64,000 nt of DNA from Spirochaetia bacterium (GTDB taxonomy: Bacteria > Spirochaetota > Spirochaetia > UBA9216), in assembly GCA_965140585.1 (NCBI GenBank), contig OZ223267.1, forward strand, positions 416,001 through 480,000, given 5' to 3'. The notes below the pieces were generated by a model that was given only the letters and a program-made list of their open reading frames with translations, did no database searches and was not told the DNA's origin. The translations under genes were made by a program, and so were the position numbers. Positions 7,608 to 26,857 of the stretch are shown piece by piece. Every line of letters begins with the position of its first letter. Within the stretch, counting starts at the first letter, position 1.

Positions 7608-10600
7608 TTAAAAATCAAGTTTGCCGCTTACTGTAAAGCTGCGTCCTTTTTTTTCTTCGTTTACTATCAGATCTCCGACTGTTTCAGTAGCAGGAAGATC
7701 GAGGATATTTTTAAATTTAAATCCCATTGAAAAAAACTCATTGAATGAATGTTTGGCTACAAGGTCCAGCTGATGAAAGGGCTGCTCGTAGTAGTCCGGA
7801 CTGCCGTCTTTTCCGATGCGAGAGATCCGCGGGCCGAATACATTGTAGTTGAGATATATACTCGTATGACTGTCGTAATCCATTGACCATGATACGGCAT
7901 TTTTATAACCAAACGAGACATTCAGTATCCAGGGAGACTGGCCCTGAAGCGCTCTCTGTGCATTTGTATTTGTACCCTGTTCGCCTTCATAGTCAATCAT
8001 TGAATAGATGTAGGAAAAATTTCCTGAGGTATTCATATCTCTGAAAAGAGAAGCCGTTCCCGCAAGGGCTTTCCTTATTTCCTTCGGAGGCCTTGCCCTG
8101 CTGATGTATGAACGAATACCGTCTGAGATATATCGAAGGCTGAGCTGCCATTCAAGTTCTCCGCCGATATTATAGGCGCTCGGAACATTTGCCAGAGTCG
8201 TTGAATCGGCTGCACCGGCTATGGATACAATTTCAATTGCATCAGTAAAGTGCTTGTAGAATCCGCCGATTGACAGGCTTTCCTGTTCTGCAATGTAGTA
8301 TTCAAGCCTTGTATCCGCGTTCCATATTTTTGCTTCCTGCAGGTCCGGATTTCCCTTGAAAACGCCTGAACCGGCAACATCATATTTTGGAGCGTCTGAA
8401 AGTTCCCGCAGATCCGGTCTGTTTACGGTTTTACTTCCGCTGGTACGGAATTGAAAACGTTCTCCAAGAGGTAAAGTCAGATTTAAAGCGGGAAGTATAT
8501 CAAGAACCTGGAGCTCTGCTGCAGATTCCGTGTCCCCGAAAAGATAGTAAGTTTCAACATCCTGTTTTGAATATTCAGCCCTGAGTCCGGCATTTGTCCG
8601 CAGATAATTAAAAAGAAGCAGGTCAGTGTTGAAGTATCCGGCTGCTATTAAATGTGAACCTCTGTAGTTATCGGTTTTCTCTGTGTATTCTGCGAAGTTG
8701 AATTCTTCATTAATATATTCTTCAATGAACAATTCATCAGGACTAAGAGAAAGATCTATCGCCGTATCATCCGAAGGCCCGAAAGCGAAGCGCCGTACAT
8801 CGGCCTCTCTGGTTTGATACATAAACTGAGTACCGACATCAAAGTAATCTGCTGAATCATTTCCAAGGAAAAAAAAACGGTATTTCCAGTTCAAGTTTTG
8901 CATCATGTATCATGTCATTAACTGTTGCATAGCACTGTGACGCCGCGTTGCTTCGGGGGTAAACTGAATATTCGGAAGATTCATCATCTGCATTTTTAGC
9001 ATAAATAATTTCACTGGTCCCCGGCTCATATCGGTTGGCCATTGAGAAGGTATACTGCCAGTTAAGATCAGGTTCTGTCAAAAAATCAAATCCTGCCATG
9101 CCCGCAATCCGCTGGCTTATGAGTGTCGATTCGATCCAGGAAATGTTGAATACGTTCAAATCAAGACTGTCGCTGCTGAAGTAACCGGAATAATTTTCAA
9201 TTTCATTGTCGGTGGTTCTGACAAGAAGTGTCGTTGATTCAAAGTTCAGATTATCATTAACCTTGTAGCCCATATCGTAAAGTGCGCCGATATCAATATT
9301 CCGGCTGGTTGAGACGGCATCATAATCATAATAAATTGCTTCCTGACTTACATCTGAATAATTTTTTATTGAGTATGCTGAGGTGTCCCAGTCGTTTTTA
9401 TAGGACAGAGATAGATTCCATCCCAGCGAGGCGTCATCCTCAAATTCCACCTTGTCTCTGAATGATACAGATGCAGAAATATCCGGCCAGATAATTCCGG
9501 TCGTACCGTCCCAGTCCTGGGGAAGAGACTCGGCAATAGTCTCAATTTCCTCCTCTGTGTAATCCGCAGAAAATATTGAAGACGACTCGGTTACCTGCTC
9601 ATCGTGAATAAGTTCTGACAGTTCCCTATCTCCGTCATCAAAGCCCAGCCAGTCAAATACTCCTGCCGTGTCAACCATCTGTTCTGTAAAGGTGCTGTCG
9701 GCATCGTATCCTATTGAAAAATTATATGTTGTCCTGAGTCTTCGTTTATATCGATCTTCCGGAATTCCGGAAGTCCTTAGGCTTACCGTTCCGCCTGCAA
9801 AATCTCCGAAAAGATCAGGGGAAAAAGATTTCTGTATCGACATACTCTCGATTACACTTGTCGGAAAGAGATCAAGAGGGACAACCCGTTTATCTATTTC
9901 AGGGCTCGGAAGTCTTGCTCCGTTCAGATATGAAGAAGAATATCTTTCTCCCATTCCACGTATATATACATATTTCCCGTCTACTACTGTAAGGCCGGTA
10001 ACCCTGCTTAATGCTCCGGCAGCATCGGAATCGCCGGAATGTGAGATTTGCTCAGCTCCAATCAGGTTCATAACGACGCTTGAATTTTTAGTTTCATCAA
10101 GTAGGTCTGCAATGCCGCCCTTTACCCTGATATCATCGGATGCAAAAACGGTAACTGCTTCAATGGTAATAGCGGAGGGTGTAAGGCTGACTTCAATATC
10201 CTGCTTTTCATCTGCGGTTATTTTAATTCCATCTATTGTTCTTGATGAAAAATCAGGGTGAATTATTGATATTGAATATTCACCTTCCGGAACCTCCGCA
10301 ATGAACCGCCCTGTATCTCCTGTATTACTTTCAAAGGCGATTCCCTTGAATATTACAGTTGCTTTTTTAATTATTTCTCCCTTTTCTATATCCCGGACAA
10401 TTCCGGACAGTATTCCGGTTTTCCCGGTAAAGCCGCCTGTCTTTTTTTCAGAGCTGTCGGATTCTCCGTTACCGGAACTGTTCTCAGTCTCATTAAAAAC
10501 TACTGTTTCATTGTCTGAAACAGTAATCAGTGCCTCCATAACAAGACCGGCTCTTACCGGAATTGTAATTACTGCAGCCTTCCGTCCTTTATAAAAAAGC

Positions 10601-10827
10601 TCATACTCTCTTGTCCCCTCAAGATCCCGGAATGTGAGATAACCGTTTTCATCTGTAGTAAATGTCTCTTCATTTACGGTTACTTCAACTCCGGGCTGAG
10701 GCATGCCGGATGCGGAGAAAACGTAGATGTCAACATCACCCTTTTTTTCGAGGGCAGTCACCGCAGAGGCTGGAATGAGAAATAATAGAATAAATGTTAA
10801 TTTAAAGCGCCTGATAAATTTATTCAT
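7608..10827 (-). pseudogene. TonB-dependent receptor (~1072 aa if intact), split by a frameshift in a T9 run
   Basis: The N-terminal ORF has a signal peptide, carboxypeptidase-regulatory-like domains and a plug (YVYIRGMGERYS, PLDLFP, FAGG). The C-terminal ORF is a beta-barrel ending in F (GNPDL, LQGQSP). Deleting one base of the A9 run at 8869-8877 fuses the two. Confidence 0.85.
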
Positions 10828-11980
10828 TATTAAAATACCTGATAGATGAATTTTTTGCTGATTCAATAGCTTTTCGAAGCTGTGATGACTGCCTGAAAAG
10901 TATGCTGTCGTCAATTCCGCTAAGATATGAGACCGCCTTCCCGTATTCCTGAGTCTGATAGAATACATATGCCAGTGCATATTTAATTCCGTCTTCATCT
11001 AAAAGTCCGAGCCTTTTAAGCCTCATTTCAAGAGCTGCAGCCTGCTCAAAACTTTTTTTCTGAATCAGGGTGTTAAACCTCAGTCTTGTTTTATCAACCT
11101 GGTCGGAGAGGAGTGTATTAAGATATTCTGATTTTAGAAAATCACCCGCTTCACGGTAGAGTTCCGCTGCATCATTTGTCATTTCATAATCATCATATGA
11201 AAGCTGTTCAACTATTCCTGCTGCGGTAAGATACATTTCCCTGTCAACATAACATTGGGCAAGCATCAGTTTTACCCTGGCATTTGCGGGGAATTTTAAA
11301 AGAGCTTCCTCCATAATCATTATTGATTCATCAGTCATTTTACAGTCCCGATGCGCTTCGGCAATTGTTATGTATCCCTCGGCATTATCGTTTTCAGAAT
11401 TTTCCAGATAGGTTCTGCTGATATCCAGAGCTTCCTGGCTGAGTCCTAGTTCCAGCAGGTAGAAAACTTTCTGCTGGAGAAAGCTTGACCTGTTTTTAAA
11501 AACCGACAGTCCCTTATCTATTGTTTTAAAAGCTTCTGATTTTTTACCGAGAAACCAGTATGACTGAGATTTTAATCCGTACAGATCCGGAAACTGATTG
11601 AGAGATGGAAGTTTATCTATTGATTCTACGGTCTGCTGATAGTCCCCGATTGAAAAATAAGCCTGCGCAAGATATGCGTTTATAACCGGATCATTAAAGC
11701 CGGCGTAAACTGCAGCTCTGAAATCCTCAATTGCTTCTTCATTATCCTGTTTTCGGAGGGCTATAAGCCCTTTGAGAGTCCAGTACCTTGCTGTATCTGT
11801 ATCGGGAGCCTCAGGATCGACATTATCCAGAGCTTCTTCGGCCCTGATATAGTTTCCGTCTTTTATCAGCACTGCTGCCACACCAAGATAATCAATGTTT
11901 CTGTTTTTAGCAGATTCCGCTGCAGGAAGAAACGCCGTGATTGCGATAGTTAGAAATATTGAAAGTAATACTCTTTTCAT
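10820..11980 (-). CDS. Exported TPR-repeat protein (TtpD-like)
   Basis: Signal peptide and repeated helical A/Y/G TPR patterns. Lies immediately downstream of tonB. Confidence 0.8.
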   Translation of the reverse strand: MKRVLLSIFLTIAITAFLPAAESAKNRNIDYLGVAAVLIKDGNYIRAEEALDNVDPEAPDTDTARYWTLKGLIALRKQDNEEAIEDFRAAVYAGFNDPVINAYLAQAYFSIGDYQQTVESIDKLPSLNQFPDLYGLKSQSYWFLGKKSEAFKTIDKGLSVFKNRSSFLQQKVFYLLELGLSQEALDISRTYLENSENDNAEGYITIAEAHRDCKMTDESIMIMEEALLKFPANARVKLMLAQCYVDREMYLTAAGIVEQLSYDDYEMTNDAAELYREAGDFLKSEYLNTLLSDQVDKTRLRFNTLIQKKSFEQAAALEMRLKRLGLLDEDGIKYALAYVFYQTQEYGKAVSYLSGIDDSILFRQSSQLRKAIESAKNSSIRYFNNE

Positions 11981-15877: not shown

Positions 15878-17287
15878 TTAGTTGGCAGGTGTTGAAGTCC
15901 AGCCGGCATACCATTCAGATCCTGAAGTTGAAGGATCAACAGCTCCAAAGTAGGCTGAGCCATCTACGCTTACAGAAATTGATGTTAAATCAGTTAAAGT
16001 TGTACTTGTCGGGCAAACATCAACTTCACTTTCATTAGCTCCAGCGAATGCTGCAGCGGGAAGGTAAGTTGTAATATTTCCATTGGTTGCATCTTTATTT
16101 GCTGCTGCAGTTGCAACCCAGTCGGCAGCTTCAGTAGCACTGTCCACAGCAGTTACAACGCCCTTATAAACAACAGTTCCGCATTCTTCGCCGGTAGCTG
16201 TCTCTTCTTCAAAGGGTTCTTTTGCAACAGCATATGCTATTGAGTTTATAAGAGTAAGGTTGGTCCCTCTTCTGAACTTACATCCGTGATCTCCGTTTCC
16301 AATCATTGTAAAGTTTGAAAGAGTAGGATTGGCAACAGGAGTGGCTGCAGTATTATCTTCGTTACTGTCAGCTTCAATGAGTTTGTCACCGATACCTGAA
16401 TACTGCTGAAGAATCACATGGTCGGCTGCTCCCGTCCATCCGTATGTCCAGTCAAGTGAATCGTCTTTTGCACCTGTAATTACAAGGTGGCTTACTTCTA
16501 CAGCTCCGCCGAAGAACTCAACACCGTCATCAGCATTCATGTGAACCTGAACGTAGTCTACAGTTGTTCCGCTTCCTACGGCCTGGAAGGCTATTCCGTT
16601 AAGTTCGTTGTCTGCACTGAAAAGTGTGCCGGCAAATTCAACTCTTACATATTTAAGAGTTCCGCTGTTATCAGCATCATCTGTTCCGCCGTAAGTTCCG
16701 GTTTCACCTTCACCTTCTGCAGTACCTCCGGTAGCATTGATTGCAGCGTTACCGTTGATTACAAGTCCGCCCCAGTCTCCGCGTGCTCTCGTTCCTTCTG
16801 ATTTTGCAGATGTAAAAACAATAGGAGCTGCAGCAGTACCGACTGCATTTATTTTTGAACCCCTTGTTATAACAAGGACACCCGGTTTGGTTGTGCTGAC
16901 TTCACCCTTGATAAGGGTTCCGGCTTCAATTGTAAGTGTACAGTTATTAGCATTATCATTTCCAATGAATACAGCATCAGCAAGATAGTATACATTGTCA
17001 CTATCCCAGCTCATGTCAGTTCCGAATCTTCCTGCTACAAGTACCTGATACTCATCATCATCACCTGTCATGTAGCCTGCATCACCTGAGACATCACCAT
17101 CAGCATCGTAAGTTCTTGTTGCCATATATCCGCCAAGGTCATCTACAGCGCTTACAATAAAGCCGTTTCCAAGATCGTCTCCAATCGCATAGTCTACAGT
17201 TCCGGTTGAATCGTCACAACCAACAAAGACAGCGAGTACAAGTGCCAGCATCACGAGTACTGACAATATGTTCATTAGTTTCTTCAT
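15878..17287 (-). CDS. Acidic beta-helix-type lipoprotein of the kind associated with TonB-dependent receptors
   Basis: FVGC lipobox; LTIEAGTLIKG, PIVFTS, GDWGGLVING, DNSGTLKYVRVEFAG and DDGVEFFGG. GGAGG RBS. Confidence 0.8.
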   Translation of the reverse strand: MKKLMNILSVLVMLALVLAVFVGCDDSTGTVDYAIGDDLGNGFIVSAVDDLGGYMATRTYDADGDVSGDAGYMTGDDDEYQVLVAGRFGTDMSWDSDNVYYLADAVFIGNDNANNCTLTIEAGTLIKGEVSTTKPGVLVITRGSKINAVGTAAAPIVFTSAKSEGTRARGDWGGLVINGNAAINATGGTAEGEGETGTYGGTDDADNSGTLKYVRVEFAGTLFSADNELNGIAFQAVGSGTTVDYVQVHMNADDGVEFFGGAVEVSHLVITGAKDDSLDWTYGWTGAADHVILQQYSGIGDKLIEADSNEDNTAATPVANPTLSNFTMIGNGDHGCKFRRGTNLTLINSIAYAVAKEPFEEETATGEECGTVVYKGVVTAVDSATEAADWVATAAANKDATNGNITTYLPAAAFAGANESEVDVCPTSTTLTDLTSISVSVDGSAYFGAVDPSTSGSEWYAGWTSTPAN

Positions 17288-17323
17288 ACTTTTCCTCCTA
17301 TGGAAAATTTAATAGATGGGCAC

Positions 17324-17389
17324 ATATTACGGGGCGGACTGTTAGGGTAGTATTATCCTGATATGAAATAGGGATAAGTTTAGTGTTAA
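17324..17389 (-). promoter_or_regulatory. Candidate Pho-box array and -10 element
   Basis: Minus-strand hexamers TTAACA, CTTATC, TTCATA, ATAATA and CTAACA at an exact 11-bp period (17389 to 17340), then 10 nt to TAATAT. Confidence 0.55.
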
Positions 17390-17424
17390 TTGTATTTAGA
17401 GAATGTTAAATAACACAGTGGAAT

Positions 17425-17460
17425 AAAAAAAAGGAACCAACCTGTTTCAAGTCAGTCCCC
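17425..17460 (-). terminator. Intrinsic terminator after the RRM gene
   Basis: Minus strand GGGACTGACTTG-AAA-CAGGTTGGTTCC (G-U rich stem) followed by T8. Confidence 0.7.
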
Positions 17461-17485
17461 TTCGGTACAAAGTAAAAAGTTATTG

Positions 17486-17755
17486 TTAGAAGCGTCTAGG
17501 GCCTCGTTCCTTTTCAATTGATTCGTTCACTTTAATGTTGCGGCCTTCAATATCAGTACCATTGAGCGCAGAGATTGCAGCCTGTGCTGAATCCTCGTCC
17601 TCCATCTCTACGAAACCGAAGCCCTTGGAGCGATTGGTTTCTCTGTCCATGATAATTTTTGCACTAACAACAGGTCCGAACTGACCGAACAGCTCTTCAA
17701 GCCCTTCGTTGCGCATTCTGTAGTTTAAGTTCCCTACATAAATTTTCTTTGACAA
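17486..17755 (-). CDS. RRM RNA-binding protein
   Basis: RNP2 IYVGNL and RNP1 KGFGFVEM. TTG start with a GAGG RBS. Confidence 0.95.
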   Translation of the reverse strand: MSKKIYVGNLNYRMRNEGLEELFGQFGPVVSAKIIMDRETNRSKGFGFVEMEDEDSAQAAISALNGTDIEGRNIKVNESIEKERGPRRF

Positions 17756-17892
17756 TTTAGCATCCTCACCGGTGTATTACCGGTATTAAAAAAATAAATA
17801 CACTGAACAGAAAATCTGTCTTAACCAGTTATTTCATCTTTAGCAGTAATTAAACTGTTTGTCAATCGGTAAAAAAATAAGTTGTAAAAACC

Positions 17893-19260
17893 TTATTTTT
17901 CATCGGGATTATCAAAGACAACCACCGTTCCGTTAAAATCAAGTACATCTCCGCTTTTAAGTATATGCTGCTTTTTAAACCGGTTGTTGACCTTAAACTC
18001 ATCATCAGCTGCTACAGTGTAGTTTCCAACGGTCTTGTCGTATACTATGGTCGCGTGTGATTCTCTTAAAGACGGGTTCCCGGCTACAGTCATATCGGCC
18101 CGGTCCCCAGCTCCAATTACAGTTACCTCATTTGTCAGATTCACTCTTGTTACCTGTGAAAATGGTTTGTCTGTATTGAGAATATTGATTTCCGCCGATT
18201 TTGCGGCATGTTCCCATACAAGCAGAAGCATTGCGGCAATTATACCTGCAGCAAGCAGAAGCGGAATCAGAAACAGCCAGCTGAAACCGTTCTCTGGAAG
18301 TCCCAGAAAGTGAGGTACATAGAATGCCGACTGACTTTCCTGATTGTCCACCTTCAGGATTATATCGTTAACCTCTGTCCTGTTGTATGAAGGACGGAAG
18401 CGTATACGGTATTCTTTTCTTATTTCCTCACGTATTGTACTGTAGACATTTTCAAGCTGTTCTCTGTCTGTTGCATCAAAGCTCCTGCCGCCTGTGGCTT
18501 CAGCAATTCTGGAAAGTTGCGGATCTCTGTCTGCTCCTATATGAACCGCATAAATACTGATGCCTTCCTCAAGCATTTTTTCAATAACTTCATCAGGTGC
18601 GGTTTGCTCTCCTGCATACAAAGGATGCTCACTACCAGAAAGCGAGTAGGGATAGTTTTCTCCGTCTGAAAGAACAATCATTGCCCGCCGGCCGGTAAAA
18701 GCTGCAAGTTCAGCAGAGGCCTTGTCCATGGACAGGTAGAGCTCTGTGAATGCTTCATCATCCGCCGGTTTCTGAATCTTTTGAAGTGAGGATTTCTGTG
18801 TTCCTGATATTCCGGCAATCGGTGAAAGCGGTGTGTAGTATGTGTTAAAAGAGGCAATCCCTATCTTATCAAGCGGATTATCTATACTGCTTAGAAAAGA
18901 TTCTACAGCATGAACCGCAGTCTGATATCTGCTCTCATCGCCTATATTCCATTTATGCATTGACCCCGAATTATCCAGCAGCAGAAGAAAGCTGATACCC
19001 TGCTGTTCAGGGGCTTCCTGCTCAATGCTCTGAATCTTCTGTTCCTTCATATTCCCCTTTGAATCGAGAATAAAAAGCTGAATTTTCTCTGAGCCGTCCA
19101 GAGTTCTCGGTGATCCTTCAGCATCTCTTGGAAGAAAGAACAGATCAAGAGTTCCGTCAATCAAAAGCCTTCGGTTTTCTATCTGGGTAATATCAATACT
19201 CTGAGCAAACAAAGATGAAACTGTTAATAAACAAATCGCTGCAGCTAATAATTTCTTCAT
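17893..19260 (-). CDS. Exported vWA domain, TM helix and cytoplasmic FHA-like domain
   Basis: Signal peptide from ATG 19260 (GGAG RBS), MIDAS DNSGS...T...SDGE, a TM helix and a C-terminal FHA-like domain (IG...HA...VN...L.SGD). Confidence 0.85.
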   Translation of the reverse strand: MKKLLAAAICLLTVSSLFAQSIDITQIENRRLLIDGTLDLFFLPRDAEGSPRTLDGSEKIQLFILDSKGNMKEQKIQSIEQEAPEQQGISFLLLLDNSGSMHKWNIGDESRYQTAVHAVESFLSSIDNPLDKIGIASFNTYYTPLSPIAGISGTQKSSLQKIQKPADDEAFTELYLSMDKASAELAAFTGRRAMIVLSDGENYPYSLSGSEHPLYAGEQTAPDEVIEKMLEEGISIYAVHIGADRDPQLSRIAEATGGRSFDATDREQLENVYSTIREEIRKEYRIRFRPSYNRTEVNDIILKVDNQESQSAFYVPHFLGLPENGFSWLFLIPLLLAAGIIAAMLLLVWEHAAKSAEINILNTDKPFSQVTRVNLTNEVTVIGAGDRADMTVAGNPSLRESHATIVYDKTVGNYTVAADDEFKVNNRFKKQHILKSGDVLDFNGTVVVFDNPDEK

Positions 19261-19274
19261 AATATTCTCCATAA

Positions 19275-20163
19275 CTAAGGTATAAATCTTAGTACTGTCC
19301 GTCCGCACCGGATAACATCTTCATATTTAAGCTGGCAGTCTCCATCGACAGCCCTGTCGTTGATAAACAGCTTTTTATCCGAAGCCTTCTTTTCAATATG
19401 AAGACTGCCTGACTGCCGGTATACCCTGGCATGGAAACCTGCTACTGCGGAATCTCCAGGCAGGACAATATCAGCCTTGTCGGCAGAACCTATAAGGCTT
19501 GAAGTTCTTGAGATGATGAATTCCTTACCTTTAAATTTTCCATTAACGACTTTCAGCACACCGTACCGGCCCACAGCATCAGCTATACTGAGCCCGGCGC
19601 CGATGAAAATTCCCATGAAAATAAAGCCGGCAAGTCTTAGTCCGGAAGGAGCTACTATGCTTAATGAGTTAAGTCCCTCATAAGCAAGTCCCGCCGGCAA
19701 GCCCTCCAACCAGTCCTCCGGCAAGTCCGAACAGCAGTCTTCTAAGTGATTTTGTCCTAACTCCTTCAATTATTCCAAGAATGCCGCCGAGGACAGTCCA
19801 TCCCGGAATTCTTGCTTTCGGAAGATAACTGGTCTGTATATCATTAATTGAAGCGCTTCCGGCTCCTGTGACAGAAAATAAAAGCCCCTGGGCTATCAGG
19901 ATTGCTAAGGCTCCGGCGATAAAGCCGAATATCAGACCGAAGAGTGCTCCATTTGCAGCCTTTGATTTTATTGAAAGGGCAATTCCTTCACCCAGTCCTA
20001 TTACAGCTCCGTATACAGCACCGATAAAACCTCCGGTAATGATCAGGTGCAGGTAAAATGAACCTCCGTTCATGATCATAAGAGATTCAGTGGCGAACCA
20101 CACTATGCCTCCTGCGGCCAGTCCAAGCAGCAGATATATAATCTTTTTTATAGTTTTAGTCAT
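19275..20163 (-). pseudogene. Gly-rich multi-TM protein with C-terminal FHA-like domain, split by a frameshift
   Basis: ORFs 19678..20163 and 19275..19769 join into ~295 aa if one C of CCC at 19690-19692 is removed (…GGLAGGLAYEG…). Confidence 0.8.
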
Positions 20164-20187
20164 TACGTTAACTCCCTGCTGTGATGT

Positions 20188-22092
20188 TTACTTTCTCAGC
20201 AATTGAATATTTCCATCTATCTCAGTAATTCTCAGTTCAATCTTCTCGCCAGAGACGATACTTAAATCCAGTCTTGTTCTGGATCCCCATCTTGATGCTT
20301 CAAACCTGTAGCGTCCCGGAGCCAGGTTCATAATCCCGGGAATGCTGTCATGCAGATTCCATGCTTCCATCCTTGTCACAGGACTTCCGCTGCTGTTATC
20401 TTCCAGATATAAATCAATCCATGATGTCCCGTTCACCGTCAAATCAATATTCTCATTACCTGTATCAAGACTAATAAGAGCCGGTTCCGGCAGGAGTACC
20501 GCTTCAATCTTCAAATCCCTGATTTCTTCTCCCAGAAAAAGGGAATAATCCTGTCCTATATATCCGTCAGCCGTCAGTCTGAAAAGATGAACATCTCCCG
20601 ATTCGATATTTGTTATATCTGAAAATGGAATGAACCCCCGGTTGGTTTTCATGCTTATCTGCGTATCAGGACCGATATCTTTCCCGCTCACTGCATCTCT
20701 GATGTCGAGAGCTACTGACAGTTCTGATGGCGCCGGCTCAGGAATACTGAAGGTTTTTACAGTTTCAGGATAAATATCCGATCCGCTGTGAAGCCTTTTC
20801 TGTTCTCTACCGGCCGGGAGATATACCGAGCCCCAGAAGATATCGGGACCGCAGGTAATTTTAATTCGGTATATCCCTGTTTTCAGATACAGGGGCAGCG
20901 TTGAGAATGTAGAACCTGTGTTTTCAGAATTTATAAACTTAGGAATCTTAAAAATTGACGGTTTTACCACAAGCGGAATTTCAGCGTTTTTTTCCGAAAA
21001 AACAGCGGCTGAAACCGGCAGATTATGAAAGTAACCTGCATTTTCGGGTAATGAAAAAGTTATCCTTAGTCTGCCGTCTGTACTTCCTTTAAAAAGGGGA
21101 TGAAATACCGTACTCTTAATTCCTGCAGTGAACAGAATAGCAACTGCCGCCATAGCAATGACGGATCGAGTGACTATTCTTATCAGGTTTTTCCTGGGTT
21201 TTAGAAGCTGCTCATTTTCTTCCAGACGTACCATAGAGCCTAGTTTTTCGCGAATAGCTTCTTTCTCGTAGTATTTGAGCAGCTTTTCGGTTCTTTTAAT
21301 TATCTGCTCTACCGTTTGATACCTTCCTTTCGGAGAGGTCTTCATACAGCCTCTGATAATTCTTACAAGCTGCCTCGATATTTCGGGAACATATTTTCTC
21401 GGGTTCCGGTATATTCCTTTCTGCTTTGCATGTATCAGTTCCGGAGAGAAACCGCCGGTAAAGGGCTGTTTTCCTGTGAGCATCTCGTATGCCATTACCC
21501 CCAGAGCATAAATATCAGCCCTTGCGTCTACATTCCTTGAATTTTGAAATTGTTCGGGAGCCATATAGGACGGTGTGCCCAGTGTCATCCCTTCACGGGT
21601 CAGTCCTGAATCTACATCTTCGGTCGATGCCGCAATTCCAAAGTCTGCGAGCTTGATTGCACCGTCTCTTGAAAGCAGCAGATTGGCGGGTTTTATATCC
21701 CTGTGTACTACGCCGCGCTTATGCGCATAACCAAGTGCCCTGGCACAGTGCAGCAGGATATATGCCGCCGTAACTGAATCAAGGTATCTGTGTTCTTTGA
21801 TAAGTCCTTCAAGAGAAGTTCCCTCAACATATTCCATGACAATGAAGTAAGAACTGCCCTCCTTGAAATGATCGAATACCGTGACAATATCATCATGTCT
21901 AAAATCCATCAGAATTCTGGCTTCGCGCTTAAAGCGTTCGGAGAAGGCCGATTTTCCACGAAGGGTAAGTTTTTTAAGGATTACGGGTCTGTTAAGAGTA
22001 GGGTGCATGGCTTTGTAAACCGCGCCCATACCGCCCTTGGCAATAAGGTCAACCTCGCCGTATTTATCAATCTTCTCAGGCTCTTTTCCCAT
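20188..22092 (-). CDS. Hanks-type Ser/Thr kinase with TM helix and extracytoplasmic C-terminus
   Basis: GGMGAVY, HRDIKPAN, DFG, GTPSYMAPE and DIYALG motifs; TM near aa 305-325. Confidence 0.95.
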   Translation of the reverse strand: MGKEPEKIDKYGEVDLIAKGGMGAVYKAMHPTLNRPVILKKLTLRGKSAFSERFKREARILMDFRHDDIVTVFDHFKEGSSYFIVMEYVEGTSLEGLIKEHRYLDSVTAAYILLHCARALGYAHKRGVVHRDIKPANLLLSRDGAIKLADFGIAASTEDVDSGLTREGMTLGTPSYMAPEQFQNSRNVDARADIYALGVMAYEMLTGKQPFTGGFSPELIHAKQKGIYRNPRKYVPEISRQLVRIIRGCMKTSPKGRYQTVEQIIKRTEKLLKYYEKEAIREKLGSMVRLEENEQLLKPRKNLIRIVTRSVIAMAAVAILFTAGIKSTVFHPLFKGSTDGRLRITFSLPENAGYFHNLPVSAAVFSEKNAEIPLVVKPSIFKIPKFINSENTGSTFSTLPLYLKTGIYRIKITCGPDIFWGSVYLPAGREQKRLHSGSDIYPETVKTFSIPEPAPSELSVALDIRDAVSGKDIGPDTQISMKTNRGFIPFSDITNIESGDVHLFRLTADGYIGQDYSLFLGEEIRDLKIEAVLLPEPALISLDTGNENIDLTVNGTSWIDLYLEDNSSGSPVTRMEAWNLHDSIPGIMNLAPGRYRFEASRWGSRTRLDLSIVSGEKIELRITEIDGNIQLLRK

Positions 22093-22112
22093 AAATAGTT
22101 CTGTTCCTTATA

Positions 22113-23117
22113 TTAAATTCTGCTGATTCGGATAATCTGCTTGTGGGGAATAAAGTCTTCGCCCCTGAATACAACAGCCGCTATTTCCTCTGATGGATGA
22201 TTAATCTGTATATACCTGTCTGAAGCCCGAAGCGCATACAGACCGTTTACCGGCCTGTGTCCGCCGAAGCATAATGCTGTCGGATTTTCCGGAAAAAGAT
22301 TATCAAGTGTCTGTTCAACACTCCCTTCCTCTGCAGCTTCATTATCAGTCCAGGTCAGGCCGTAAAGAACCTCATCATCTTCGTAAGCATTTATCAATTC
22401 GTCGCGGCTGAAAGTGCGTACAGGTTCCGCATGTGTAACCAGAAACCTCTCACCGACAGCCGTAAGCGGTAGTGCTTTTTCATAGTCATAAATCAGATCG
22501 AAGCATTCTTTTCCAAGAAACTTCTCTGTCCATACTTTTACCATTTCACCTTCATTAACAAACTTTCTAAAAGGGTAGTTCCCTTCGCCCATCTCATTGG
22601 CGATATTCTCATGGTTTCCTTTAAGGAAAAAAAAGTTTTCCGGAAAACTCTGAAGCAGTACCAGAATCATCTGCAGCAGCCTCAGATTGTCGGACATCTC
22701 CTGATCCATGGACCCATGTTTAACAAAACCTTCCATAAATTCTACATAAGCCAGGGACCATCTGCCTCTGACTCTTGCTTCACCATGAAAGGCGTCTCCT
22801 ACACAGACTACATTAGCTGTGCCCTGGGCGAGCATCCGAAGAAACGAATCCCCTTTTACAAGCGGTATTGTAAGTGCATTGTACAGGAAATCACGTCTTC
22901 CATGAAGATCCGGAATAATTAATGTGGGCATCTCCGGTTTAAGAGAGATAAGGCTTCCCGGCTCTCCGGATGAGGCGGTGGGGCGAATTTCATCAGATAG
23001 TCCCTTGAGACTGTCTATTGTTTTTCTGAGTTCTGTGGCAAGTGCCGCACCCTTGGGGGTGGAGGCACTGTCACGTAATCGAGCTAATAATGAACTGACA
23101 ACTTTAAAGGTATTCAT
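22113..23117 (-). CDS. Calcineurin-like metallophosphoesterase (putative PPP-type phosphatase)
   Basis: DLHG, GDAFHG, GNHE, THA and GGH motifs. Confidence 0.85.
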   Translation of the reverse strand: MNTFKVVSSLLARLRDSASTPKGAALATELRKTIDSLKGLSDEIRPTASSGEPGSLISLKPEMPTLIIPDLHGRRDFLYNALTIPLVKGDSFLRMLAQGTANVVCVGDAFHGEARVRGRWSLAYVEFMEGFVKHGSMDQEMSDNLRLLQMILVLLQSFPENFFFLKGNHENIANEMGEGNYPFRKFVNEGEMVKVWTEKFLGKECFDLIYDYEKALPLTAVGERFLVTHAEPVRTFSRDELINAYEDDEVLYGLTWTDNEAAEEGSVEQTLDNLFPENPTALCFGGHRPVNGLYALRASDRYIQINHPSEEIAAVVFRGEDFIPHKQIIRISRI

Positions 23118-23127
23118 CAGTTAAGAA

Positions 23128-23664
23128 TTATTCTCCGGCAATAATTGTTCTATTTACTTCAGTAAAATCTTCGGCAAGTATCTGTGTAACTTCAGCCAGC
23201 TGTTCTTCTTCATCTTCGGCTTCTAGCTCATCAGAGAATACTGCCATCTTATATATCGGCGAACTGCTCTTAACAGGACCGGATTTAAATTTTACTGATT
23301 CACCGGCCTGTACCATTGCATCAAGAACTGCATCTTCCGATTCTGCAAACTCTGGAACATCTTCCCTCATTCCGATGCTTGCATATGTTGCTGTTCTTTT
23401 GCCGTCTACAATTGGCCCTACAGAAAGAAGTGAACCTGAATAGGTAAGCAGAAGAACGCCGCCGTTTTCATCGTAGGGATCGAATTCGTCGACCATTTCC
23501 ATTTTTCTTACCAGGATCTGATGAACAAAGGCATCTTCTTTTTCTTTCCATGCTCTTGCCAGTGTTTCAAGAGCTTCACCGTCATCTTCAATTTTTACCG
23601 ATTTCCTAAGACTGCTGATATGATCAGCAACTTTCGGATCCAATTCATCAAAATATTCTGCCAT
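23128..23664 (-). CDS. Acidic hypothetical protein; paralog of the N-terminal domain of 23793..24656
   Basis: GGAGG RBS. Shares W.EK...F..Q, LT.SGSL.S..P, Y.SI..R.DVP, F..G.V...SP and F...NR with its neighbour. Confidence 0.85.
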   Translation of the reverse strand: MAEYFDELDPKVADHISSLRKSVKIEDDGEALETLARAWKEKEDAFVHQILVRKMEMVDEFDPYDENGGVLLLTYSGSLLSVGPIVDGKRTATYASIGMREDVPEFAESEDAVLDAMVQAGESVKFKSGPVKSSSPIYKMAVFSDELEAEDEEEQLAEVTQILAEDFTEVNRTIIAGE

Positions 23665-23792
23665 TTTGCATCCTCCATCCTCGTTAATTTATACCGGTTT
23701 TCCAGAAAATTCCAAAAAAATCGGAAAAATTTGAAAAATGTTGTATAATTAAGCTGTACAAAGCCTAATACATATGGAAAACAGGAGGCAGT

Positions 23793-24656
23793 ATGGCTTT
23801 TAATAAATTACCTGCGGATATACAGAAACACATCACCGGACTCGTAAAACTTATTCCGGATGCCGGGGAGGATACGCTGGAGTTGTACTCTGACGTATGG
23901 ATGGAAAAGGACAGGATGTTCAGGAGCCAGATGTCCTCAGTCGGCATGAAGCTGGTTGAGACTGCAGATCCCGGAGAGGGAAACGGAATCCTTGCCCTGA
24001 CCAATTCCGGTTCACTTGTAAGTCTGAGCCCCGGAAAAGAAGAGCGGGTTCTTGAATATTCAAGTATTAAACTGCGAACAGATGTCCCGGATATAATTAT
24101 AGATAAAATATCGAAGCTCCCGGAATCTATCAAAAACGGAATGCCTGTGGTTTTTCCTGAGGGCCGGGTAAGCAGAACCAGCCCGGTGCATCTGATAGCA
24201 GTCTGTACTTCAGAGGTTCCGCAGGAAGAGCAGTACAAGCGAGTCAGGGAAGCCACAATCTTTTTAACCAACGGATTTATGAAACTTAACCGCAGCCTTC
24301 ATCTTGATCCTGCAAATGTTCCGGATCAGTACACTATGAAAAGCATGGTCAGGTATGTAGCTAAAAAGAACAGTATGACCGCCGGAGATGTGAAGACTGT
24401 AATTGATGACTTTCTGTATCTCATCGAAACAGGCTTAACACTTGGTGAAACTGTACCGCTGGGAAGAATAGGACGGTTCAGTGCTAAGAAAAAGGATGCT
24501 CAGAAGGCAAGAATCGTAAGACATCCGGCTACCGGTGAAGAGATTACAGTAGAAGCCAAACCATCAATTGTAGTGCCCAAAATATCTTTCTCCAGCTATC
24601 TTAAGGAACAGCTTGCCGAGCTGCCGGCATCAGAGAATGATACGATAGAACGCTGA
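23793..24656 (+). CDS. Unrecognised N-terminal domain fused to an HU/IHF-like DNA-binding domain
   Basis: The C-terminal ~95 aa match the HU/IHF pattern (LTLGETVPLGRIGRF, ARIVRHPATGEEITV, PKISFSSYLKE). AGGAGG RBS. Confidence 0.88.
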   Translation: MAFNKLPADIQKHITGLVKLIPDAGEDTLELYSDVWMEKDRMFRSQMSSVGMKLVETADPGEGNGILALTNSGSLVSLSPGKEERVLEYSSIKLRTDVPDIIIDKISKLPESIKNGMPVVFPEGRVSRTSPVHLIAVCTSEVPQEEQYKRVREATIFLTNGFMKLNRSLHLDPANVPDQYTMKSMVRYVAKKNSMTAGDVKTVIDDFLYLIETGLTLGETVPLGRIGRFSAKKKDAQKARIVRHPATGEEITVEAKPSIVVPKISFSSYLKEQLAELPASENDTIER

Positions 24657-24688
24657 CTTTTTTTTAAGAACAGTTTATTCTACAGTAT

Positions 24689-26857
24689 ATGAGCAGTCCA
24701 TTTCTTTCAGCATCAGAGAAAAACCGTGGTCTTAAGCACCATTACCGTCACCAGCTGTTAAACGGCATCGGATTTAACTTTCTGGGTGATACGCCTGTAT
24801 ACCTCCTGGCTTTATATTTCGGGGCAAGCAATACAGAGCTTGGATTTATAAGTTCGGTTCTATATGTTGCAGGTATTCTTCTTTCAATTACCCCAAGGCT
24901 GCTTGCCGGTAAAGATATTGTAAAAATTCAGTATCTTGCATGGCTTATTCGCGGATTTCTCTGTCTTTCCTACGCCGCCCTGTTTTTCTTACAGGGACGA
25001 GCGGCTGTATGGCTGATTCTGATAACATATACGCTTTTCTGCTCATCGCGAATCGTGGGAGCATCTATGTATCAGCCGCTGATCAGGATGATTTCCACAA
25101 CCCGCAACCGGGGCAATGTTCTTGCCGGATCTTCGCTTAGATTTCAGATTTCGGCCACTCTTTCAAAGGTAATAAGTTTTGCAGTTACATCACTAAAGCA
25201 GCTGGGCGGAGTGTCCGGAATCCTTTTTATGACTCTTGGCGGTGTGATCATTAATACATTAGCCGCGCTTGAGATAAAAAAAATTCCCTGTAGGGAGAAA
25301 GTCAGATATAAAAAAGGAAGAAATGTATTTGTTATCTTTCTTGAATCTGTGAAAGTAAAAAATCTGCGGCAGCGAATACTTCTTTCAATAATCAACGCAG
25401 GGCTGATAGTAATTTTCGGGTTTGCTGTTCCGTTTCTGCGTAATGATGCCGGGTTTTCAAACTCCGAAGTCTTTCTAGTGACAGTGACCGCCGGGGTTGC
25501 TACCATTGCTTCTGCATATTTTTCAAAGGGTTTTGCGGATCGCCTGGGCAGCCGTCCGCTTATAATCTGGGTAATTGTACTTCTTACAGCCGCGTCACTT
25601 CTCTGGGCTTTACTTCCGTATACTCCCTACAAGGCTGTCTATTATTTCGCTCTTTTTCTTTCAACGTTTTTTCTCAGAGCCAATGACCTTCTGGTAAACA
25701 GGCTTATTGTAGGAAGTATGCCGGAAAATGATTCGGTTGGTTTTTCAAGTATGCTGAATTTTTTTATAGCTTTCTTTGCCCTGATAATCGGTCTCACTGG
25801 CGGAAAGCTGGCGGATTTTTCCAAAAGCAGTGACTCTTTTGCGGCTGTAAATGGGTATTCCTTCACCTTTATTTTTGCGGCAGTACTCTGCCTGTTTTCT
25901 CTGTTTATTTCGCTCAGGATAAAAGAAAGCGGTTCTATTTCGCCAGCTGAAGCAGCTGCCATAATTTTTTCACCGTCAAACCTTTCGACATATCAGAGTA
26001 TTTCCAAACTCGATTCAACCGAAAACGCAATTCAGCGGAAGACACTTCTGATGAATATTGGTCTGAATAATTCCAAAATGGCAACGGATGAAATCCGAAA
26101 CATTTTATCCAGCCCTCTCTCTTCCGATAAAGGTGAACTTATTACTTCACTGTATACGAACCATAGGCCTATTCTTCTTCCTGAACTTCTGCATGAAGCT
26201 GAGGAACCTTATTCATATCACCGGTTGAAGGCTATATTTGCTCTGGGTGCATATCCCTCTGTTGAAACCCAGGAGCTGCTTTTAAGGCTGCTTGACGATC
26301 CGGATCCGGCTGTTGTTTCAAATGCAGCAAAATCTCTAGGCAGAATAGGCTGTACAACCGCTTATGATAAGGTAAAAAAACTTGCAGCATCTCCGACTAC
26401 GATCTGGAACACGCTCAATTTTATTATTGCCATGTATCATCTTGATACTGAGGGTGAATATCTGAATGATATCTTCTCGGAAGACAAAACAGTCAACGGG
26501 GATGCTTTTAACCAGACTGTGTACAGTCTTTATGCAAACCTGTATCAGATGGAGCCGCCGCTCTCAGTTATTTTCCAGGAGAGAAATATGATGAAGGGGC
26601 AGGGGCTTCGGGATTTCCTGGATGAGGCACGTGAAGAGGAGAAATTCCTTCATAATCATCGAAATTTTCTTGAGTGGTTCAGGGATGATGAACTCGAAAA
26701 TATCTGGAACCTCTGTAAAGATATTCTTCAGCCGAAGACTGTCCCTGACTATTATTCGGGCATAAAAAAAAGCATCATCAAATTCCCTTCCGACAAAGGA
26801 GCTTATGATGATGCTTTAGCAGCAGTATATTTTACATATCAGCTGCTTAAGATGTAG
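24689..26857 (+). CDS. MFS-like transporter with C-terminal HEAT-repeat domain
   Basis: About 12 TM helices with ADRLGSRP; C-terminal AIFALG...LLDDPDPAVVSNAAKSLGRIG. Confidence 0.8.
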   Translation: MSSPFLSASEKNRGLKHHYRHQLLNGIGFNFLGDTPVYLLALYFGASNTELGFISSVLYVAGILLSITPRLLAGKDIVKIQYLAWLIRGFLCLSYAALFFLQGRAAVWLILITYTLFCSSRIVGASMYQPLIRMISTTRNRGNVLAGSSLRFQISATLSKVISFAVTSLKQLGGVSGILFMTLGGVIINTLAALEIKKIPCREKVRYKKGRNVFVIFLESVKVKNLRQRILLSIINAGLIVIFGFAVPFLRNDAGFSNSEVFLVTVTAGVATIASAYFSKGFADRLGSRPLIIWVIVLLTAASLLWALLPYTPYKAVYYFALFLSTFFLRANDLLVNRLIVGSMPENDSVGFSSMLNFFIAFFALIIGLTGGKLADFSKSSDSFAAVNGYSFTFIFAAVLCLFSLFISLRIKESGSISPAEAAAIIFSPSNLSTYQSISKLDSTENAIQRKTLLMNIGLNNSKMATDEIRNILSSPLSSDKGELITSLYTNHRPILLPELLHEAEEPYSYHRLKAIFALGAYPSVETQELLLRLLDDPDPAVVSNAAKSLGRIGCTTAYDKVKKLAASPTTIWNTLNFIIAMYHLDTEGEYLNDIFSEDKTVNGDAFNQTVYSLYANLYQMEPPLSVIFQERNMMKGQGLRDFLDEAREEEKFLHNHRNFLEWFRDDELENIWNLCKDILQPKTVPDYYSGIKKSIIKFPSDKGAYDDALAAVYFTYQLLKM

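Follow-up and report, generated by a model that had tools for sequence, protein, structure and literature searches.

Six genes that encode the components of a predicted Ser/Thr signaling system were analyzed in a 64,000-nucleotide stretch of the genome of a Spirochaetia bacterium (GenBank assembly GCA_965140585.1, contig OZ223267.1, positions 416,001 to 480,000), which is hereafter called the window. Five of them lie on one strand and encode a small protein made up of a domain belonging to no catalogued family (the orphan domain), a metallophosphoesterase, a transmembrane (TM) Hanks-type kinase, a membrane protein with an FHA domain (TM-FHA), and an exported vWA protein that has one TM segment and ends in an FHA-like domain (vWA-FHA). 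The sixth, transcribed divergently, encodes a second orphan domain fused to HU/IHF. The sequences show the gene content, its conservation, intact catalytic motifs, and the topology; the six genes form a real, closely spaced combination that is strongly conserved and was found here only in Spirochaetota. We consider, with moderate confidence, that the cluster is a conserved chromosomal Ser/Thr phosphosignaling module in which the orphan domain links an envelope kinase system to HU-bound DNA.

Conservation of the cluster and its predicted receptor and enzymes

All six genes were recovered with the coordinates and domains that an initial annotation of this DNA had assigned to them (open reading frame [ORF] list, Pfam, and NCBIfam; Table 1). 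Loci for comparison were drawn from GTDB contigs, with one genome per species, by means of a motif at the C-terminus of the stand-alone orphan clade, and their genes were called by a six-frame ORF scan with the window proteins; this yielded 89 relatives, from which 80 loci were retained. All locus titles that named a taxon belonged to Spirochaetota, including Marispirochaeta, Treponema, Sediminispirochaeta, Alkalispirochaeta, and many metagenome-assembled genomes. The phosphatase gene adjoined the orphan gene in 71 of the 80 loci, and in the other nine the orphan gene lay directly before the kinase gene. The kinase gene was present in 78/80 loci, the two misses being contigs that ended within approximately 1 kb. 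When at least 5,300 nt of downstream sequence was available, the kinase, TM-FHA, and vWA-FHA occurred together in 59 of 60 loci (the exception was L031), and TM-FHA and vWA-FHA formed one fused ORF in eight loci. On the other side of the orphan gene, 70 loci had at least 1,200 nt of upstream sequence; the HU fusion was divergent and adjacent in 51 of these, and in three it lay past the opposite end of the operon in convergent orientation. In other words, homologs of the orphan-domain and HU-fusion proteins are linked to kinase, FHA, and vWA genes in other genomes, with the HU fusion adjacent in 54/70 loci; the initial annotation had named a lack of such linkage as evidence against its own proposal. 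Among 401 sampled Spirochaetota genomes, the orphan domain was found in 57, distributed over 39 of 153 genera, and 36 of the 57 had at least two matches. Three large families contained it in 0/75, 0/38, and 1/50 genomes, respectively.

The kinase matched Pkinase (PF00069) with an E-value of 9.4e−53 (179.7 bits, against a cut-off of 31.7), and it was the sole Pkinase match in the window's genome, which is 98.5% complete. The HRD..K..N motif, the DFG motif, and the beta-3 lysine were each present in 78/78 orthologues when tallied by regular expression, and in the window they read VHRDIKPANLL, LADFG, and VILKK. Hydropathy indicated a single TM segment at approximately residues 303–321, separating a cytoplasmic kinase domain from an extracytoplasmic region. 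The 309-aa ectodomain was modeled with a pLDDT of 87 as an all-beta structure of three Ig-like beta-sandwiches, for which the top Foldseek matches were the Bacillus anthracis TIE protein (E-value 1.9e−8), followed by pilins and adhesins.

The phosphatase matched Metallophos (PF00149; E-value 2.1e−8, 35.3 bits against a cut-off of 21.5), and its motifs PD.H[AG]R, GD..H.E, LKGNHEN, HAEP, and GHR were invariant (70–71 of 71 orthologues). The signature of phosphoprotein phosphatases (PPP) is GDxHG ... GDxVDRG ... GNHE. Compared with it, GNHE was retained in 71/71 orthologues, the first motif read PD.H[AG]R, and the second read GD..H.E without DRG. The best solved relatives were PP1 catalytic subunits, with an E-value of only approximately 0.08 and an alignment confined to the PENFF.L.GNHE block. 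Judging by the intact catalytic and metal-ligand motifs, both the kinase and the phosphatase look active. The usual partner of bacterial Hanks kinases is a phosphatase of the PP2C type, and it is unusual for a Hanks kinase to be paired with a PPP-like enzyme instead.

The vWA domain (PF00092) spanned residues 109–289 of its protein (E-value 1.9e−12, 48.2 bits against a cut-off of 23.8), and the D.S.S motif of the metal ion-dependent adhesion site was found in 62/62 orthologues. Hydropathy gave this protein a signal-like N-terminus and a single TM segment, at residues 330–348 of the M17 form. Its C-terminal FHA match, at residues 396–458, scored 18.3 bits, under the cut-off of 20.7. The TM-FHA protein scored above the same cut-off (E-value 1.9e−8, 35.1 bits) and also matched Yop-YscD_cpl (E-value 9.7e−15); the best solved relative of its domain was 3gqs, deposited as an “adenylate cyclase-like protein” (E-value 0.0065). 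Hydropathy thus agreed with the topology first suggested for the exported vWA-TM-FHA protein and for the TM kinase, the FHA domain of the former falling below the Pfam cut-off. Both membrane proteins carry their FHA-fold domains on the cytoplasmic side.

The orphan domain and its HU-fused paralog

The stand-alone orphan protein matched no Pfam, NCBIfam, or PADLOC family. A profile of the domain retrieved 202 representatives at E-values ≤1e−3 among 1.84 billion proteins, and these fell into two main sizes, approximately 175 aa and approximately 290 aa, the latter fused to HU. The AF2 model, a confident one (pLDDT 87.9, pTM 0.84), consisted of a long helical hairpin (helices 28–52 and 149–176) around seven strands. 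Foldseek gave no match to this model in the PDB at an E-value ≤1e−3, the best Z in a wide VIA-align search was 5.0, with mostly helical hairpins in the top rows, and a search of the ESM Atlas with the domain returned unnamed clusters only, with a best score of 0.86. Therefore, on the basis of the model, no clear solved-structure match was found, and a new fold is not claimed. The orphan domain was also considered as a diverged FHA domain, and this was rejected because hhalign against FHA profiles gave a probability of 0.1%. The invariant positions included H15, W39, K42, T74, S76, G77, S78, P84, R90, Y94, S96, R100, S135, and N171; D102 was also conserved, and the motif T.SGS was present in 80/80 cases.

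In the HU-fusion protein, Bac_DNA_binding (PF00216) was matched at residues 181–274 (E-value 2.4e−14, 53.7 bits against a cut-off of 22.4). The C-terminal 95 aa aligned across the whole fold to IHF-alpha (2iif and 1ihf) and HU (1b8z), and the structure alignment included the beta-arm with its intercalating proline (RHPATGEEI versus RNPKTGEDI). The domain thus resembles canonical HU/IHF in its full fold and proline-bearing arm, but the protein differs from them in its 175-aa N-terminal domain of an uncatalogued family; a strict regular expression for the HU arm was satisfied by only 23/59 orthologues. The main text of a survey of HU architectures (PMC5499826) contains neither “kinase” nor “FHA.”

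The N-terminal domain of the fusion shared 35% identity over 173 aa with the stand-alone orphan protein (BLASTP E-value 1e−26), which bears out the earlier suggestion that the two are paralogs. These are the only two copies of the orphan domain in the window's genome, which has two HU-family genes, one canonical and the other the fusion. When a maximum-likelihood tree was constructed from 149 domain sequences, all 62 HU-fused N-terminal domains formed one clade (support 100/100, recovered in 100% of 200 bootstrap trees), indicating one ancient duplication and fusion followed by co-inheritance.

The orphan domain also occurs in other contexts. A third, divergent clade (L091–L096) was recognized by the profile at E-values of approximately 1e−13 to 1e−15. 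In L091, the orphan gene (9104–9631) is followed by a gene (9908–11023) whose 372-aa product has an HU domain at its N-terminus (E-value 6.5e−24), and by sequence these neighbors are a second, independent association of the orphan domain with HU. In L097, a 336-aa protein (9442–10449, minus strand) combines the orphan domain with an uncharacterized C-terminal domain of approximately 125 aa, designated “X.” A 701-aa metagenomic protein, P0099, comprises a signal-like N-terminus (by eye), a vWA domain (PF00092, E-value 2.2e−16), a TM region, the orphan domain (406–576), and X; the orphan domain here occupies the position held by the FHA-fold domain in the window's vWA protein. A metagenome scan for the context of P0099 gave 595 pattern matches, of which 0 were confirmed, and a search for longer fused forms of the orphan domain detected none at an E-value ≤1e−5, which is weak evidence.

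A comparable replacement was seen within the operon. Phosphatase orthologues (E-value ≤1e−20) were found in 87 of the 401 genomes, more widely than the orphan domain. When the genome lists were compared by hand, 52 genomes had both, five had the orphan domain only, and 35 had the phosphatase only, 26 of these 35 belonging to one family. In 6/6 loci of that family (L100–L103, L106, and L107), a sister operon encodes a small FHA protein, the phosphatase, and the kinase, in this order, and the orphan, TM-FHA, and vWA genes were all missing from these six sampled loci. The small FHA protein (114–123 aa) has a canonical FHA domain (PF00498, E-value approximately 1e−23) and a conserved Thr-containing N-terminus, M.D.TII.SS. 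Because this protein precedes the phosphatase-kinase pair there, the orphan gene fills its slot in the module. The swap in the operon slot and the swap in the FHA position of P0099 suggest, at the level of sequence, that the orphan domain is the cytoplasmic effector of the module.

GarA and OdhI of Actinobacteria are small FHA phospho-switch proteins. The small FHA protein of the sister operons, which has a Thr-containing N-terminus and is encoded before the phosphatase and kinase, resembles them. By analogy, the presence of the orphan protein in the same slot suggests a substrate or effector role comparable to that of GarA/OdhI, although the orphan domain is unlike them in having no FHA homology and no N-terminal Thr motif apparent by eye in the alignment.

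Proposed mechanism, alternatives, and known systems

We infer phosphorylation, contacts between the parts, and an effect on DNA along the following lines. The kinase and the vWA/FHA-fold proteins would form an envelope-spanning receptor complex, and the kinase/phosphatase pair would set the phospho-state of the system, with the phosphatase as the eraser. The orphan domain would act as a cytoplasmic effector or switch, either being phosphorylated itself or docking onto phosphorylated partners; its HU-fused paralog would relay this state to DNA and so alter local nucleoid architecture or transcription, and the free paralog would compete with or partner the HU form. A more specific proposal is that the orphan domain is a hitherto unrecognized phospho-signaling module (an acceptor switch, or a phosphopeptide reader replacing FHA) and that the HU fusion responds directly to the receptor kinase and PPP phosphatase. 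We put this forward only tentatively; if true, it would constitute a dedicated receptor-kinase-to-nucleoid pathway in bacteria.

Several observations weigh against a route from the envelope to HU through the orphan domain. The locus counts come from related genomes that are not independent and carry ascertainment bias. The modeled ectodomain of the kinase is a generic Ig-like fold that names no ligand or cue. The HU fusion was not in the flank of 16/70 loci, and of five genomes without an adjacent fusion, three encode it elsewhere and two showed none. In 35/401 genomes, the phosphatase-kinase pair is present but the orphan domain is not, and conversely, the six sampled loci of the divergent orphan clade had no kinase, phosphatase, FHA, or vWA genes. 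That clade nevertheless retains W39, K42, F46, T74, G77, S78, R90, I97, F126, S135, and F167. Because invariant Thr, Ser, Arg, and Lys residues are kept in a clade without kinase linkage, the invariant polar residues of the orphan domain are unlikely to be mere phospho-acceptor sites, and a pocket that binds a ligand or partner would explain them at least as well.

The FHA-fold domains of the operon add a further point on the same side. Phosphate contacts in FHA domains are made at Gly-Arg, Ser-x-x-His, and Ser-x-Asn-Gly-Thr positions. The canonical Arg after the conserved Gly was present in only 5/53 TM-FHA and 1/54 vWA-FHA orthologues, and the canonical Ser three residues before the conserved His in 5/53 and 2/54, respectively. 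Eight sampled operon domains were then aligned with four canonical spirochaete FHA proteins, two from the window's own genome and two small FHA proteins of sister operons. All three motifs were present in 4/4 of the canonical proteins; the Ser-x-Asn-Gly-Thr loop was missing from 8/8 operon domains, and the Arg and Ser positions were missing from 7/8, with the TM-FHA of L013 alone keeping Gly-Arg and Ser-x-x-His. Because both FHA domains of the operon mostly lack the canonical Arg, Ser, and Asn-Gly-Thr residues, phospho-dependent docking through them, in the manner of a simple phosphothreonine-FHA relay, is doubtful. They look like phospho-independent scaffolds, and FHA-fold domains stripped of the phosphothreonine pocket are unusual.

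These features bear on a first alternative, in which the orphan domain is a small-molecule or phosphopeptide sensor or reader that replaces FHA and is not a kinase substrate, the HU fusion being a reader-controlled nucleoid protein and the free paralog an adaptor for the kinase system. We regard this alternative as rather unlikely. It would account for the conservation of some twelve invariant polar residues (H15, K42, T74, S76, S78, R90, Y94, S96, R100, D102, S135, and N171), for the persistence of several invariant residues in the clade without kinase linkage, for the two replacements of FHA by the orphan domain, one in the operon slot and the other at the C-terminal end of a vWA-TM protein, and for the loss of canonical residues from the FHA domains that the operon itself encodes. 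By hhalign, however, no homology of the orphan domain to FHA is detectable; the orphan model matched no known binding fold by Foldseek or VIA-align, and according to Pfam, the operon encodes no enzyme for making a small-molecule ligand.

The genome contains two further FHA proteins outside the operon, both canonical: a 127-aa protein (L110:3044–3427, minus strand) and a 326-aa FHA-GGDEF diguanylate cyclase (L111:3088–4068, plus strand; GGDEF E-value 1.3e−48). From their sequences, these are equally plausible outputs of the sole kinase, which counts against a route reserved for HU. Because this genome has one Hanks kinase and canonical FHA proteins are encoded elsewhere in it, the kinase probably has other readers, including a cyclic di-GMP (c-di-GMP) cyclase, and the pathway probably does not serve the HU fusion alone. 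The presence of an FHA-GGDEF protein beside a single Hanks kinase in the genome also suggests that Ser/Thr phosphorylation is connected to c-di-GMP.

A second alternative, which we consider unlikely, is that the operon is a general envelope or growth Ser/Thr kinase system with a role like that of PknB/PrkC and with vWA/FHA scaffolds, and that the HU fusion is a mere neighbor, possibly autoregulatory, and not under control of the kinase. The single Hanks kinase of the genome and the canonical FHA readers elsewhere, including FHA-GGDEF, would agree with such a role, as would the wider occurrence of the phosphatase-kinase core (87 of 401 genomes) than of the orphan domain (57 of 401) and the loci at which the HU fusion was unlinked or not found. 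It does not explain why the N-terminal domain of the HU fusion is shared with the first gene of the operon, why the fusion has been co-inherited with the orphan gene since a single duplication, why it is adjacent at most of the loci examined, or why a second, independent association of the orphan domain with HU occurs as neighboring genes in L091.

The initial annotation had proposed that an envelope signal reaches HU through the shared orphan domain. The conserved linkage, together with the slot and fusion swaps, supports this proposal; a relay through phosphothreonine and FHA is doubtful, and a pathway reserved for HU is improbable. The module as we read it is a known kind of Ser/Thr signaling system, newly built around an uncatalogued domain. 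In the archaellum regulatory (Arn) network of the archaeon Sulfolobus acidocaldarius, as far as the consulted part of PMC6509490 describes it, an FHA protein (ArnA), a vWA protein (ArnB), the Hanks kinases ArnC and ArnD, and PP2A act together, and the FHA domain of ArnA, a ZnF-FHA protein, binds double phosphoserine/phosphothreonine motifs. On this partial account, the network resembles the module in bringing together a Hanks kinase, a PPP-family phosphatase, and FHA and vWA proteins, with an output on gene expression, and differs from it in that the FHA domain of ArnA binds phosphoserine/phosphothreonine, whereas those of the module mostly lack the canonical residues. ArnA and ArnB are cytoplasmic proteins, whereas the vWA protein of the module is exported and both of its FHA-fold domains are membrane-anchored; the comparison covers shared domain types. 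Neither an orphan domain nor an HU fusion belongs to the Arn network.

The threonine phosphorylation pathway of the H1 type VI secretion system (T6SS) of Pseudomonas aeruginosa comprises PpkA, a kinase with an extracellular vWA domain, PppA, and Fha1 (PMC3224232, in the part consulted). To the extent covered there, it is like the module in grouping the genes for a TM Hanks kinase and its cognate phosphatase with those for an FHA protein and an extracytoplasmic vWA domain; the vWA domain lies within the kinase polypeptide in PpkA, but in a separate TM protein in the module. PppA is a PP2C-type phosphatase, whereas that of the module is Metallophos/PPP-like. The output of the PpkA/PppA/Fha1 pathway, according to the same partial account, is T6SS assembly, whereas the flanks of the module, as scanned with Pfam, encode an RNA recognition motif (RRM) protein, an ORF of no family, and a major facilitator superfamily (MFS)-HEAT protein, none related to T6SS. 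The pathway has no orphan domain and no HU. As they are described in the parts of the sources compared, both Arn and PpkA/PppA/Fha1 lack the orphan domain, an output through HU, degenerate FHA domains anchored in the membrane, and a separate exported vWA protein.

In the vWA-MoxR and ternary conflict systems, as outlined in the consulted part of PMC7159879, a MoxR AAA+ ATPase is combined with a vWA component and effector domains. An anti-phage or conflict system of the vWA/kinase type is highly improbable here: vWA and FHA domains are present in those conflict systems, on the same partial account, and the kinase domain matches PADLOC PD-T4-6 and mad6 (NCBIfam MADS6 lies below its cut-off), but the PADLOC matches span the generic kinase domain only, 0/6 other ORFs match, no MoxR/AAA+ gene or effector domain is found in the operon by Pfam, and the module is single-copy, is spread over 39/153 sampled genera, and maintains its core gene order across 80 loci.

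Full-text literature searches found no published description of the module, in line with the initial annotation, which did not recognize the combination as a described pathway, and no paper on Ser/Thr kinase signaling in spirochaetes. The module is not described in the text of PMC7159879 or PMC5499826, as far as this text was compared; their supplements, which may list architectures, lie outside the comparison. The dedicated outputs of bacterial Hanks kinases are mostly unknown, though the kinases are common, and comparative genomics here gives one specific candidate. If the link between the kinase system and HU-bound DNA is real, it would give spirochaetes a route, open to direct testing, by which an envelope receptor acts on chromosome architecture, and it would add a new domain to the phospho-signaling toolkit.

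Organization of the locus in the window

The coordinates of the cluster are given in Table 1. The operon genes are separated by 10, 20, and 24 nt, and by 14 nt before the vWA gene if the ATG at 19260 is its start, in agreement with the gaps of 10–25 nt noted initially. This ATG is likely the true start of the vWA protein, giving it a signal-peptide-like N-terminus.

Table 1. Features of the gene cluster, with positions in the window
Feature	Position	Strand	Basis
Exported vWA-TM-FHA-like protein	17893..19308	−	471 aa from GTG start; Pfam VWA and weak FHA
TM-FHA gene, 3′ part (last TM segment and FHA domain, frame B)	19275..19769	−	Pfam FHA, Yop-YscD_cpl
TM-FHA gene, 5′ part (glycine-rich polytopic membrane region, frame A)	19678..20163	−	161 aa, hydrophobic
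Frameshift site, extra base within G-rich run	19685..19692	−	Alignment with L003; contigs
Receptor Hanks-type Ser/Thr kinase	20188..22092	−	634 aa; Pfam Pkinase
Metallophosphoesterase, PPP-like; predicted cytoplasmic protein Ser/Thr phosphatase	22113..23117	−	334 aa; Pfam Metallophos
Stand-alone orphan-domain protein, first gene of the operon	23128..23664	−	178 aa; no family match
Divergent intergenic region, 128 nt, with conserved block	23665..23792	.	Alignment of 7 relatives
Orphan domain (residues 1 to ~170) and C-terminal HU/IHF (181–274)	23793..24656	+	287 aa; Pfam Bac_DNA_binding

The TM-FHA gene of the window is divided between two overlapping ORFs in different frames, and no Pfam family was matched by its 5′ membrane part. 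In relatives, both parts are joined in one ORF of 293–306 aa; in L003, which is 90.9% identical to the window across 15.8 kb, it is a single 306-aa ORF with five hydrophobic segments (hydropathy, threshold 1.5). Alignment of the window with L003 placed one extra base near 19689 in the window. The public contigs of the probable source run, X1, which contains 99% of the words of the region, end at 19644 and restart at 19691, and an X3 contig from a relative has one base fewer at 19689 than the window. Because the source-run contigs break at the site and the contig of the relative lacks the extra base, the split is probably a problem of assembly or strain heterogeneity, though this is not proven. 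The multi-TM FHA protein of the initial annotation therefore holds for the intact form of L003, which is polytopic with a C-terminal FHA domain, but the window gene itself is in two frames through a 1-nt indel.

The divergent intergenic region contains a conserved block, TGGA.T..T.TGGAAAA..G..TA (on the strand of the orphan gene), common to seven relatives with orphan proteins approximately 60–100% identical, and this block may be a promoter or operator. A simple promoter scan found no site inside the region and 12 sites across 17300–25000, against 13.6 expected. Promoter and terminator signals showed no excess over shuffled sequence, and an Rfam scan of 17000–25000 gave 0 matches at an E-value ≤0.1.

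Beyond the HU fusion, a gene starting 32 nt past its end (24689–26857, plus strand) encodes a 722-aa MFS-HEAT protein (MFS_1, E-value 7.4e−11; C-terminal HEAT_2, E-value 2.1e−12), which occurs at the corresponding position only in the close relative L003. On the other side, the minus strand encodes a small RNA-binding protein of the RRM type at 17486–17755 (RRM_1, E-value 3.2e−27), whose gene lies 137 nt downstream of that for the vWA protein, and a terminator-like hairpin lies beyond the RRM gene at 17463–17429. The RRM gene was seen again within 3 kb downstream in three other loci (L044, L056, and L072).

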